DNA of 4,648 nt from a virus (Duplodnaviria > Heunggongvirae > Uroviricota > Caudoviricetes): positions 1 to 4,648 of the IMG/VR virus record IMGVR_UViG_2645727715_000001; one strand, written 5' to 3'. This document shows, piece after piece, positions 665 through 4,146 of this stretch (the stretch's first letter is position 1; every line of letters starts with the position of its first letter). The notes below the pieces were generated by a model that saw nothing but the letters and a program-made list of their open reading frames with translations, was not told the origin of the DNA and ran no database searches. Position numbers and translations under genes: made by a program.

Positions 665-670
665 TATGGC
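653..670 (+). repeat. 18-bp gene-junction repeat AAAGGAGAGTGATATGGC, copy 1 (stop of ORF 476-664, RBS and start of ORF 666-1181)
   Basis: Exact identity with 1553-1570, read directly from sequence; both upstream proteins end in KGE. Confidence 0.9.
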
Positions 671-1181
671 GTTAACACACCGCGAACTCTGTCAGATTGC
701 GTACAAGTTCCTTAAGCGCAACGGGTTCAAGGTTTGTTTTCATGACCGCTTTATAGCTGTAACCAGTACCGGAGAACAGCCAGATGCTATGGGATTCAGA
801 AATTCAGCATCATGCCTGATAGAGGCGAAATGTTCTCGTGCTGACTTGTTGGCAGATAGAAAAAAGCGTTTTCGTAAAAATCCGTCTCTTGGAATGGGCG
901 ACTGGCGATTCTTTATTAGTGAGCCGGGAATTATTTCAATTGAGGATTTACCACCTGGCTGGGGATTACTTCACGTTGTTAACGGAAGAGTACGGAAAGT
1001 ACATGGGTGGCCCAAGGGTAATTGCTGTTGGGGTAATCCTGACGATAAGCCATTTACTGGAAATAAGCAGGTTGAATGCGATTACATGTTATCTGCATTA
1101 AGGCGTATGGAGTTGAGAGGGCACCTTAATGAAATATATGACGGTGTAATTGTTAATAAGAAAGAAGGAAACGCGGCATGA
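666..1181 (+). CDS. Putative PD-(D/E)xK-fold nuclease-like protein, 171 aa, with Cys/Trp-rich C-terminal region (GNCCWGNPDD...ECDY)
   Basis: ATG 666 with AGGAG 6 nt upstream. N-terminal region shows E7, P39-D40 followed by hydrophobic residues, then hydrophobic-IEAK (E53-x-K55) followed by a basic helix (RADLLADRKKRFRK), the classic spacing of a PD-(D/E)xK core. Stop overlaps next start (ATGA at 1178-1181). Fold assignment is motif-based only. Confidence 0.7.
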   Translation: MALTHRELCQIAYKFLKRNGFKVCFHDRFIAVTSTGEQPDAMGFRNSASCLIEAKCSRADLLADRKKRFRKNPSLGMGDWRFFISEPGIISIEDLPPGWGLLHVVNGRVRKVHGWPKGNCCWGNPDDKPFTGNKQVECDYMLSALRRMELRGHLNEIYDGVIVNKKEGNAA

Positions 1182-1564
1182 TCACTATTACCAAAGAGCG
1201 ACTGCTGACAATCAAGCAGTGGCGCGAAACATACGGACCTGGTAGCAACGTTGTACTGCCAGCAGAAGAAGCGGAAGAACTGGCACGGATTGCGCTGGCA
1301 TCGCTGGAAGCAAAACCAATAGGTGCTTTCCACATTGCAGAACAGCAGGTCGATGGCACAAGTGACTACATCAAGGATGGGGAGTGGCCTATTGATAATG
1401 GAATTATTGAGGTCTACGCCGCTCCACCCGTTCCAGTAGTACCGGAAGAAAAACCAATGCCTAATCCTCTTAGCATGTACGCGGTTGATGCTGTTGCCGC
1501 TATTGCAGAGGTGAGAGGCTGGAACGCCTGCCGCGCTGCAATGCTTCAGGGAAAAGGAGAGTGA
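1178..1564 (+). CDS. Hypothetical phage protein, 128 aa; paralog of the N-terminal half of the downstream 315-aa protein
   Basis: ATG 1178 overlapping upstream stop; GAAGGA 1164-1169 as RBS. Shares MxTITxE start, ELARI(A/V)LASLEA(K/E)P and (V/L)Y(A/T)(A/T)PP(V/A)P motifs with ORF 1772-2719, including a 34/35-nt identical DNA stretch. Confidence 0.75.
   Translation: MITITKERLLTIKQWRETYGPGSNVVLPAEEAEELARIALASLEAKPIGAFHIAEQQVDGTSDYIKDGEWPIDNGIIEVYAAPPVPVVPEEKPMPNPLSMYAVDAVAAIAEVRGWNACRAAMLQGKGE
1277..1311 (+). repeat. 35-bp in-frame repeat, copy 1 (GAACTGGCACGGATTGCGCTGGCATCGCTGGAAGC)
   Basis: 34/35 identity with 1937-1971; encodes ELARIALASLEA. Confidence 0.9.
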
Positions 1565-2719: not shown

Positions 2720-2976
2720 TGGATGTAAAAGAGAAGGTTTTGCAGGTGATGCGTTCCCGGGCTGCCCTGCAAGATAAAGCTCTCGGCGGGAAATATCCAT
2801 TCAGGATGGCAACCTGGAATCTGCGGTTGGCAATGGAGAAGGAATTTCCTGATGAAGAATGGCGTTCGGCAGATTTGCGCAAAATTCTTATGGAGATGGC
2901 TAAAGATGGAACAGTATCCAAAGATACCCATGCCAGCCGGATTGGTCAGGCGGTATGGAGACTGGAGGTGAGGTAA
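2716..2976 (+). CDS. Hypothetical small phage protein, 86 aa
   Basis: ATG 2716 overlaps upstream stop (ATGA) with strong AGGAGG (2705-2710) at 5-nt spacing; stop TAA 2974-2976. Confidence 0.65.
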   Translation: MMDVKEKVLQVMRSRAALQDKALGGKYPFRMATWNLRLAMEKEFPDEEWRSADLRKILMEMAKDGTVSKDTHASRIGQAVWRLEVR

Positions 2977-3050
2977 TAAGCTGGCCTGAAGCATTTGCGA
3001 TTGTAGGCGTAGCTATGGCGATTGCCGCTATTTTTATCTTCTGGGGGTAA
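2955..3050 (+). CDS. Candidate unannotated mini-ORF, 31 aa, single predicted transmembrane helix (METGGEVISWPEAFAIVGVAMAIAAIFIFWG)
   Basis: Frame 3 ATG 2955 to TAA 3048-3050. It exactly fills the only untranslated gap between 2976 and 3053, and its stop sits 2 nt before the ATG of the next gene. No good SD for ATG 2955; GGAGGTGAG at 2964-2972 is downstream of it. Speculative. Confidence 0.25.
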   Translation: METGGEVISWPEAFAIVGVAMAIAAIFIFWG

Positions 3051-3052
3051 CG

Positions 3053-3268
3053 ATGGGAAAATTAACTTTTGTAGTCGAATTTGAGGATGGCAAAGAGCCA
3101 CCTGTTAGCGCCAATCTTGATGTTGCTGGTGGCAGGCTGGTTTCGGTTCTATTTGGTGATTACCGCGACGACTTCTTTCAGCCTGAAGAAGTTGATGTAG
3201 TGCGAGAAGCATTAAACGAGCTAAGTGTTGATAACGATGATGCTCATGCGGAAATCATCAAAAAATGA
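3053..3268 (+). CDS. Small strongly acidic protein, 71 aa (17 Asp/Glu vs 7 Lys/Arg); candidate DNA-mimic or anti-defence-type protein (hypothesis only)
   Basis: ATG 3053 preceded by GGGGGT; residue composition counted directly from the translation; stop TGA 3266-3268. Confidence 0.65.
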   Translation: MGKLTFVVEFEDGKEPPVSANLDVAGGRLVSVLFGDYRDDFFQPEEVDVVREALNELSVDNDDAHAEIIKK

Positions 3269-3332
3269 ACTGACTACTCACTAAATTATCAATTATGGTG
3301 CTATCACCTACGACACCGAGAGAAAATTTATA

Positions 3333-3455
3333 ATGTCAAAAGTAAATGTTTTGATTTTTTCAGCAATTGTTGGCTTTGGTTTTACTGCCGGAGTGCAGAT
3401 TTATATTACGTGGGAAAAAATCATCAACTACGAATGGAGTTGTTTTATTAAGTGA
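3333..3455 (+). CDS. Candidate small membrane peptide, 40 aa (MSKVNVLIFSAIVGFGFTAGVQIYITWEKIINYEWSCFIK), one hydrophobic helix
   Basis: Frame 3 ATG 3333 to TGA 3453-3455 in the AT-rich segment. Ends 7 nt before ATG 3463, and its 3-prime end contains the GAGGT that would serve as RBS for the next gene. It competes with the TTG-initiated N-terminal extension of tool ORF 3367-3756. Confidence 0.35.
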   Translation: MSKVNVLIFSAIVGFGFTAGVQIYITWEKIINYEWSCFIK

Positions 3456-3462
3456 GGTAAGT

Positions 3463-3756
3463 ATGTGGAGAGGTAATAATCATGGCAAAAGCCAGATGAT
3501 ACTTACCGAATATAAGCTAGACCACAAAACCAATAAATCACGCTCAGTATATTTGCTCCGGCACAATAGCCGCGTAAGAAATACCGTGCTGGAACAAAAT
3601 CTGACAGTTGAAATGGATAATTGCGGGGGATTCAAGCCAACAATTTCGCTTGATGATTTTCCTCGTGGTTTAAGCGAAAGAGAAGCAATGCTGAAATTAG
3701 CAGAATGGCTACAAAGATTAAGCATTGCTATTGAAGATAACTGGTCTGAACCTTAA
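3463..3756 (+). CDS. Hypothetical protein, 97 aa if started at ATG 3463 (tool call 3367-3756 uses an upstream TTG)
   Basis: Frame 1 ORF ending TAA 3754-3756; ATG 3463 has GAGGT (3454-3458) upstream, though at short spacing; alternative in-frame ATG at 3496. Followed by a perfect hairpin-forming palindrome at 3789-3805. Confidence 0.5.
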   Translation: MWRGNNHGKSQMILTEYKLDHKTNKSRSVYLLRHNSRVRNTVLEQNLTVEMDNCGGFKPTISLDDFPRGLSEREAMLKLAEWLQRLSIAIEDNWSEP

Positions 3757-3788
3757 ATTTATATGATGACACTAAAACATTTTCTTGA

Positions 3789-3805
3789 CCGCCCATTATG
3801 GGCGG
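3789..3805. repeat. Perfect 17-bp palindrome CCGCCCA-TTA-TGGGCGG (7-bp GC-rich stem, 3-nt loop); possible RNA hairpin or dimeric-protein binding site
   Basis: Read directly; located 33 nt downstream of stop 3756; a TTGACC hexamer (3785-3790) abuts it. No U-tract follows on either strand. Confidence 0.6.
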
Positions 3806-3990
3806 CAGCCGCAGGCTATGACTTTAATTATATGGATTGCATGTCTTGTACTGCCAATGCATACGACCATTCGTTCATCCTGCTGTTTAATTCTTTAAGA
3901 ATATTGCCGGAAACAGTATTTCTTAGGTGATGGAATGACTGATATTGCCAAAATGAACATTGAAGAATGGACTAAGGAATGTGAAAAGAA

Positions 3991-4146
3991 ATGGCGCAAA
4001 AAGAAATGACCAGAATCACTGAAGAGCGCATATCAGAGATTATTTCCCGTATCGAAATGTATGGTCACGGTGCTGGATATACGGCAGATGAAGTATTGGA
4101 AATAGCCCAGCAGATGCTGGCCTTGAGACAAAAAAGAGCAACATGA
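3991..4146 (+). CDS. Possible short ORF, 51 aa (MAQKEMTRITEERISEIISRIEMYGHGAGYTADEVLEIAQQMLALRQKRAT); may be a fragment of a disrupted gene
   Basis: Frame 1 ATG 3991 to TGA 4144-4146. It is overlapped by a 24-codon ORF (3935-4009, frame 2, good AGGTGA RBS) and followed by a frame 2 ORF, so the region looks frame-broken. Confidence 0.3.
   Translation: MAQKEMTRITEERISEIISRIEMYGHGAGYTADEVLEIAQQMLALRQKRAT

Follow-up and report, generated by a model that had tools for sequence, protein, structure and literature searches.

The open reading frame at positions 3053-3268 of the window, by which we mean the whole stretch of 4,648 nucleotides that was analysed, is a genuine gene under purifying selection and a member of the protein family PHROG 3876. 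Its product consists of a conserved N-terminal module and an acidic C-terminal half, and the copy in the window is a truncated allele of a protein with 77 amino acids. The best explanation for these proteins might be that they are stand-alone, stoichiometric binding proteins of the decoy type, the acidic tail of which would lie on a basic surface of a host or competitor protein; the probability we assign to this reading as a whole is roughly 0.4. The part of it that concerns identity and anatomy is near-certain, and the part that concerns the mechanism is a tentative suggestion, which we regard with some doubt. The features discussed below are the following.

2978..3456, plus strand: swappable cassette of micro-ORF, acidic protein and 40-aa membrane peptide, 479 nt; present in SJ46, 813R1 and J6 p1
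3043..3047, plus strand: Shine-Dalgarno-like run GGGGG, 5 nt before the ATG; sequence read directly
3053..3268, plus strand: coding sequence of the acidic protein, a truncated allele of the 77-aa PHROG 3876 family (SJ46 gp091, YP_009293548.1; WP_000517420.1)
3053..3160, plus strand: conserved N-terminal module, residues 1-36, MGKxTFVVEFEDGKEPxV...GGxLxxVxFxD
3161..3265, plus strand: acidic C-terminal half, residues 37-71, net charge -7, with the DYRDDFF junction and two predicted amphipathic helices
3260..3284, plus strand: truncating lesion together with what remains of the ancestral 3´ end, from the comparison with close relatives

An acidic member of the PHROG 3876 family

The ORF begins with ATG and, with the stop codon included in its coordinates, encodes 71 amino acids (MGKLTFVVEFEDGKEPPVSANLDVAGGRLVSVLFGDYRDDFFQPEEVDVVREALNELSVDNDDAHAEIIKK). 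A preliminary description of this DNA had reported a 71-aa product with 17 Asp/Glu against 7 Lys/Arg, clustered in DD, EE and DNDD patches. Our recount agrees with these figures, since the protein contains nine Asp and eight Glu versus four Lys and three Arg, and the three patches could all be located (residues 39-40, 45-46 and 60-63, respectively); the pI is 4.2 and the net charge about -10. The ATG is preceded by a Shine-Dalgarno-like run, and the stop codon of an upstream micro-ORF (3048-3050) is located only 2 nt 5´ of it, which suggests translational coupling. A scan for promoters and terminators around the gene remained at chance level, and an Rfam scan of the whole window gave no matches.

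The protein matches the PHROG 3876 profile with an E value of 5.2e-48, its residues 1-71 aligning with positions 1-71 of the 77 profile positions. All relatives (106 at 90% clustering, 173 representatives at 50% clustering) come from Enterobacterales, and none of them carries an assigned protein name. Compared with the copy in the phage-plasmid vB_EcoM-813R1 (813R1), dN/dS is about 0.07 in the N-terminal and about 0.04 in the C-terminal half. In comparisons with distant homologues, pS is about 0.75-1.0, that is, saturated, and pN amounts to 0.11-0.23 in the N-terminal 40 codons and to 0.23-0.37 in homologous C-termini. Since synonymous sites are saturated and pN is nevertheless low, the conservation is one at the protein level. 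This rules out that the 5´ end is conserved as a linker for recombination at the DNA level. Likewise, an ORF that arose by chance and is not expressed, as might be suspected for a short reading frame without a Pfam family, is ruled out by the conservation pattern (dN/dS); with the profile match (E = 5e-48), hundreds of homologues, strong purifying selection and the Shine-Dalgarno-like run against it, its probability is close to nil.

Scans of the window protein against Pfam, NCBIfam and PADLOC, the library of the latter holding defence-system proteins and no anti-defence proteins, did not give any matches. PDB profile searches with the family alignment as well as with the module alone returned noise only (E of at least 0.2), and neither Ocr, ArdA, ArdB-KlcA nor any solved structure matched the window protein in sequence, profile or fold. 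The domains DUF551 (PF04448), Ead_Ea22 (PF13935) and Tad2-like (PF11195) are absent from it and were seen only in proteins that share its module. A homologue of known function was not found, and this includes the homologue with a known unrelated function that the preliminary description had named as an argument against its proposal. Searches of the literature by sequence motif and PHROG identifier found no mention of the family, and the window sequence is absent from the supplements of the two accessory-gene screens by Silas et al. Apart from its entry as PHROG 3876 the family is unstudied, and the 36-residue module with its acidic tail appears to be undescribed.

All close relatives are 77 amino acids long and end with ...EIIKKMELLTH, whereas the window copy stops at K71. 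Over these 71 residues it is 100% identical to the SJ46 protein and 97% identical to the one from 813R1. The difference in length results from a lesion at about 3260-3277, in which a run of A is one base shorter, TGG is changed to TG and CTA to ACT. The sequence is thereby 2 nt shorter in total, a premature TGA is generated at 3266-3268 and the ancestral TAA (3282-3284) is now out of frame. The lost tail, MELLTH, contains the motif ELLT-Y/H (K-x-E-L-L-T-Y/H), which is conserved across the subfamily with 76-83 amino acids, lacking from the window copy and, in the structure model of the 77-aa protein, paired as a bridge with residue 42. The exact 71-aa form has been recorded on a single contig (4648 nt) and is a singleton allele. 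Either a true mutation or an error in the local assembly could account for the lesion, and the function of the truncated copy may be impaired.

A portable module and its acidic tail

In 150 diverse sequences, G13 and G27 of the module are invariant, and T5, V7, D12, E15, P16, G26 and D36 are conserved to at least 90%; residues 37-77 vary in sequence across the family. A profile search through the whole library revealed many proteins that match only positions 1-40 and then carry other C-termini. Clustering of 162 C-termini yielded up to about 40 groups not linked by BLAST, eight of them with at least two representatives; forty is a maximum, since frameshifts or truncations seem to account for some of the singletons. 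Five members contain a fusion of the module to DUF551 (including P0144, P0148, P0193 and P0230), and in one member it is fused to an Ead_Ea22 coiled coil (P0146). In P0190 (206 aa), the module is followed by an acidic linker and a Tad2-like Thoeris anti-defence domain (PF11195, E = 1e-12), a sole case that stems from a single contig of 1205 nt.

Searching with a profile of the module only, we found a large set of proteins with 46-70 amino acids, such as P0277 (46 aa, 95 member sequences) and P0332 (61 aa, 72 contigs). The minimal relatives with 46 amino acids consist of the module and a polyacidic tail (e.g. ...RDALEEPEEDDD), and in the smallest relatives this acidic tail has only about 10 residues (e.g. 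ALEEPEEDDD). Since the module is found alone as well as with many different C-termini, it is an autonomous, portable unit and, judging from the sequences compared here, the acidic tail is its most constant companion.

The acidity is found throughout the family. Averaged over 46 full-length relatives, the net charge is -11 (individual values from -16 to -3), and -7.7 of this falls in the C-terminal half. For 275 module-bearing proteins, we determined the charge of the 15 residues following the module, which is on average -4.3 in forms with up to 50 amino acids, -5.1 in those with 51-70 and -2.9 in those with 71-86. A net charge of -3 or lower was found for these residues in 95% of the 51-70-aa forms and 71% of the forms with up to 50 amino acids, and the whole tails after the module are negative in each length class. 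Nine positions are acidic in at least 70% of the sequences (E9, E11, D12, E15, D36, D39, D40, E45 and D48), and helix 44-57 has a conserved acidic face, which in a helical wheel is that of an ordinary amphipathic helix. With -0.11 to -0.165 charges per residue, the homologues belong to the most acidic 10% or so of the 84 genes called in related phage regions (mean -0.014 charges per residue, SD 0.065), and a few other small genes there reach the same acidity.

The high net negative charge that characterises the DNA-mimic class is thus present in the window protein (net -10 over 71 residues, pI 4.2) and in its family (mean -11). That the charge has been conserved despite the turnover of the sequence takes us further than the preliminary description, which looked at one sequence, and is the chief argument for a function that depends on charge. 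However, many exo-xis/ea-type proteins are acidic (PMC10834534), and therefore composition alone discriminates poorly. The conservation of the acidity may also reflect solubility or general selection. Furthermore, the best-conserved acidic positions (E9, E11, D12, E15, D36, D39 and D40) are located in turns and junctions of the module and may be structural instead of forming a charge array.

AF2 with an alignment of 50 sequences predicted a beta-hairpin (residues 18-25 and 28-36) and two helices (pLDDT 78, pTM 0.40). With 150 sequences, the prediction for the 77-aa protein reached a pLDDT of 90.5 and a pTM of 0.62 and has helices at residues 37-40, 44-56 and 62-74; here, the N-terminal part is largely extended and a short hairpin is present only at the GG turn. 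Thus, the two models differ on the N-terminal strands. In the model of the 77-aa protein the first strand (TFVVEFE) does not have a partner inside the monomer, an arrangement that would be compatible with strand-mediated self-association or with binding to a target.

Function might be confined to the 36-residue module, with the acidic helices as a dispensable spacer or solubility tail that mosaic recombination has left behind and the window copy as a decaying pseudogene. This would fit the presence of the module alone in 46-aa proteins and together with many unrelated C-termini, as well as the singleton window allele, which lost the conserved tail via clustered indels. But the C-terminal half is itself under purifying selection, as the low dN/dS against 813R1 (about 0.04) and the pN of 0.23-0.37 at saturated pS in distant pairs show; its charge and amphipathic helix pattern are conserved and even the minimal proteins have kept a polyacidic tail. 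We consider such a restriction of function to the module improbable.

Three genes of the window (1178-1564, 1772-2719 and 3991-4146) have in common another shuffled head at the N-terminus (M-x-TIT-K/R-E ... ELARIALASLEA-E/K-P; PHROGs 60, 3323, 660 and 5117), which precedes differing C-termini, including DUF551. The same head opens a 304-aa gene (L010 4087-5001) located just upstream of the acidic-protein homologue in Salmonella virus PAT1.

Genomic surroundings in P1-like, lambdoid and epsilon15-like elements

Megablast with the window found P1-like phage-plasmids (Punavirus SJ46, vB_EcoM-813R1, RCS47 and isolates named 'P1'); these matches identify it as the variable accessory array of a P1-like phage-plasmid from the SJ46 lineage. 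The array consists of co-directional unannotated genes between the polynucleotide kinase/phosphatase gene and hot/humD/phd-doc and holds EaA-like, DUF551 and Ead/Ea22-like genes, which are otherwise typical of lambdoid phages. In the window, the neighbours of the acidic-protein gene include a DUF551 protein, and EaA- and Ea22-like genes are present in syntenic P1-like records. By its position, the gene belongs to the exo-xis/ea-type accessory genes of temperate enterobacterial phages. P1-like phage-plasmids, which occur commonly in E. coli and Salmonella, disseminate resistance genes, and their variable accessory array is essentially unannotated.

Within the array, the acidic-protein gene is part of a swappable cassette, in which it is flanked by the micro-ORF and a gene for a 40-aa predicted membrane peptide. 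The cassette is replaced cleanly between flanks of 94-99% identity in RCS47 (L012 3862-4158) and MH422554 (L011 3967-4263), the former carrying at this position a segment of about 300 nt with an ASCH-domain gene and the latter a different, unannotated segment of about 300 nt. The micro-ORF (window 2955-3050, core 2976-3050) encodes a small hydrophobic peptide, MSWPEAFAIVGVAMAIAAIFIFWG in SJ46; in 813R1 it has diverged, yet it is still open and hydrophobic. In the window, its ATG has become ATA (G to A at 2978), and the only possible start is an in-frame ATG at 2955 that overlaps the preceding gene. The 40-aa peptide (window 3333-3455, MSKVNVLIFSAIVGFGFTAGVQIYITWEKIINYEWSCFIK) is nearly identical in SJ46 and 813R1.

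The three reading frames might form a membrane cassette, in which the acidic protein would be the partner of the flanking hydrophobic peptides and, for example, neutralise a membrane-active peptide. They are swapped as one unit of 479 nt in P1-like elements, with the stop codon of the micro-ORF (24-31 aa) 2 nt from the ATG and the 40-aa peptide downstream, and frame and hydrophobicity of the micro-ORF have survived the divergence in 813R1. However, the homologues in lambdoid and epsilon15-like prophages do not have flanking peptides and the start codon of the window micro-ORF is mutated, which makes such a partnership very unlikely.

The 77-aa form is encoded on 223 PLSDB plasmids, which are mostly non-mobilizable and, among the matches listed, mostly 80-117 kb in size. 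The cassette is present in 219 of 5426 complete E. coli genomes (about 4%), with 207 of 224 places being plasmid-borne, mostly on plasmids of about 95-100 kb, and its gene is annotated as 'hypothetical protein' throughout. Altogether, about 220 sequenced plasmids and numerous prophages of Enterobacterales carry the acidic family, and each copy is labelled 'hypothetical protein'.

Two further observations concern the composition of the array. The GC content of the window falls from about 0.50 to 0.36-0.41 at about 3150-4050, a region that covers the 3´ part of the acidic-protein gene and the next small genes, and increases once more beyond about 4050, which would fit a mosaic origin of the block. 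At window positions 666-1181, a basic protein of 171 amino acids (pI 9.3) is encoded, which has strong matches to PHROGs 9263 and 631 and a weak one to a 'DNA repair protein' PHROG. Products of 288 amino acids from related lambdoid operons show weak MmcB-like (PD-(D/E)XK nuclease) matches, and the 171-aa protein may come from an accessory gene with a nuclease fold.

The consensus of the P1 C1 operator is ATTGCTCTAATAAATTT (PMC8546580). A scan of SJ46 with this consensus gave four matches in 18 kb, compared to 0.11 expected. One of them, identical at 16 of 17 positions (L001, SJ46 5462-5478), is located right after the kinase/phosphatase gene, where it abuts a promoter-like -10 and lies directly upstream of the array. 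The other three are found before pmgS (3321-3337 and 3370-3386) and just upstream of lpa (15872-15888). The 15-nt core of the 16/17 site is present at the same position in 813R1 (L002 1742-1756) and RCS47 (L012 546-560). The window begins downstream of these sites and does not contain any C1 site, and between the 16/17 site and the acidic-protein gene we found no convincing terminator on the same strand. Judging from the conserved C1 site upstream and the lack of a convincing terminator, repression of the array in the plasmid prophage and its early expression are both probable.

The homologue closes the early-left (pL) operon of lambdoid prophages from Citrobacter, Enterobacter and their relatives, where the gene order is N, kil, gam, recT, exo(YqaJ), methyltransferases, TraR-like zinc finger, NinX, DUF4222 and/or DUF7694, acidic-protein homologue, xis and int. 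The gene thus sits at the xis-proximal end of the exo-xis region, the spot that is taken by ea8.5 and orf55 in lambda (PMC8614690). In epsilon15-like prophages and in Salmonella virus PAT1, it follows DnaT, RuvC, Lar_restr_allev and Ead_Ea22 and precedes the terminase genes. Some of the neighbours in the early operons have links to anti-restriction or anti-nuclease functions (Dam and C5 methyltransferases, Lar_restr_allev and GamL), but the same operons also carry recombination, TraR-like and uncharacterised genes, and the association with anti-restriction is loose. With these relatives in pL operons, the conserved C1 site and the charge conserved in 46 relatives, the premises of the preliminary description, namely a phage early region and an accessory, acidic protein, have held up.

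We found no neighbour that is constant across the P1-like, lambdoid and epsilon15-like contexts, and therefore the protein probably acts alone. A role as Xis/excisionase is ruled out, since a separate HTH/Xis gene is located downstream in the relatives. A two-gene partnership with DUF4222 or DUF7694 is likewise ruled out, as both are absent from the P1-like and epsilon15-like contexts, and so is a type II antitoxin, since there is no toxin adjacent in any context.

Directly 3´ of the homologue, we observed a conserved stretch in four different lambdoid prophages (L003, L004, L006 and L007, about 6259-6345). It reads as a spurious ORF (MSWLLGAKALPRYP...) and probably represents a conserved element without coding function that separates the last pL gene from xis.

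The positions in the genomes are also the basis for the main rival of the decoy reading, according to which the protein would be a modulator of development or host physiology like Ea22, Orf63, Orf61 and Ea8.5 from the lambda exo-xis region, tuning lysis-lysogeny, host replication or division rather than countering host defences. Where exo-xis/ea-type proteins have been investigated, which is the case for a few of them, they influence lysis-lysogeny and the physiology of the host (PMC10834534, PMC8614690). The family shares several properties with the exo-xis proteins (Ea22, Ea8.5, Orf63, Orf61, Orf60a and Orf73), which are small early-left accessory proteins encoded between the recombination genes and xis/int, dispensable for growth and composed of a mosaic head and a variable C-terminus with mostly acidic C-terminal domains (PMC10834534, PMC8614690), as in the Ea22 variants (PMC10834534). 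In addition, the lambdoid relatives occupy the ea8.5/orf55 spot (PMC8614690) and the window is rich in EaA, DUF551 and Ea22-type genes. On the other hand, there is no sequence, profile or fold similarity to these proteins, including the PDB structures of Ea8.5, the Ea22 C-terminal domain and Orf63, and the module is neither the Ea22 head nor its coiled coil. Furthermore, the family is not confined to lambdoid phages but is also found in epsilon15-like prophages, next to the terminase genes, and in P1-like ones, which do not have the lambda-type decision circuitry. Such a modulator role is conceivable, but we regard it as doubtful.

A putative decoy-type inhibitor

According to the decoy reading, the acidic protein would act alone as a stoichiometric binder that is made early in lytic growth. 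The module would supply the fold or a docking surface, possibly with strand-mediated self-association, and the conserved negative tail would cover the basic surface with which a host or competitor protein binds nucleic acids, making the acidic protein a decoy-type inhibitor. Its target might belong to the defence nucleases, the nucleoid proteins or the factors for replication or transcription. We propose this because of the conserved charge, the portable module, the early-operon context, the compact model with amphipathic helices (pLDDT 90.5) and the variable presence or absence of the gene.

The preliminary description had put forward a DNA mimic or anti-defence factor as a hypothesis based on composition; with the present evidence, which neither supports nor refutes this, we cannot tell. 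An anti-defence function would be favoured by the negative tail, the operons with methyltransferases, Lar and Gam, the presence/absence polymorphism and the one Tad2-like fusion.

A special case of the decoy proposal would be a DNA mimic of the Ocr/ArdA type, in which surface carboxylates would resemble the backbone of DNA and the protein would tie up type I restriction-modification or BREX complexes. T7 Ocr (gp0.3), ArdA and the non-mimic ArdB/KlcA are, like the window protein, small and strongly acidic and are encoded in early regions of mobile elements; the net charge of -10 over 71 residues, kept negative in the family, the early operon context and the orphan methyltransferases and Lar nearby would fit such a function. 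With about -0.14 per residue, the window protein has a lower charge density than Ocr (about -0.24 per residue), and it is about half the size of Ocr-type mimics. Moreover, it lacks sequence, profile or fold similarity to the solved DNA mimics, and its strongest conservation is in the 36-residue module and not in an elongated helical charge array. P1-type phages, in addition, are reported to shield their DNA already with injected Dar proteins (PMC12810830). We consider a DNA mimic in this strict sense unlikely.

The fusions allow a more far-reaching proposal. Some relatives join the module to the domains of the Tad2 (PF11195), DUF551 and Ead_Ea22 proteins, none of which is carried by the window protein. 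Module and acidic tail might define an undescribed superfamily with a new fold, consisting of phage inhibitors of a host nucleic-acid-binding protein that is a target for defence or takeover, and the head might have been recombined with DUF551, the Tad2-like sponge and the Ea22-type coiled coil as a modular anti-defence toolkit. This is a speculation that we think is rather unlikely to be correct in full. If the acidic tail does act on a host protein that binds nucleic acids, the shuffled module would help to explain the mosaic DUF551/Ea22 proteins of the exo-xis region, a long-standing part of the 'dark matter' of lambda. If, in contrast, the decoy reading is false, acidic composition alone would be a weak predictor of function in exo-xis/ea-type genes.

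Small acidic inhibitors that combine beta and alpha elements are known from other phages. The UDG inhibitor p56 of phi29 and the RNA polymerase inhibitor Gp2 of T7 have 55-65 residues, a short beta-sheet plus helix and an acidic surface, and they occupy the DNA-binding site of a host enzyme. The resemblance of the window protein to p56 and Gp2 lies in this general build. Should the acidic tail indeed inhibit such a host protein with affinity for nucleic acids, the few decoy-type inhibitors known from phages would be joined by a family with a new fold.
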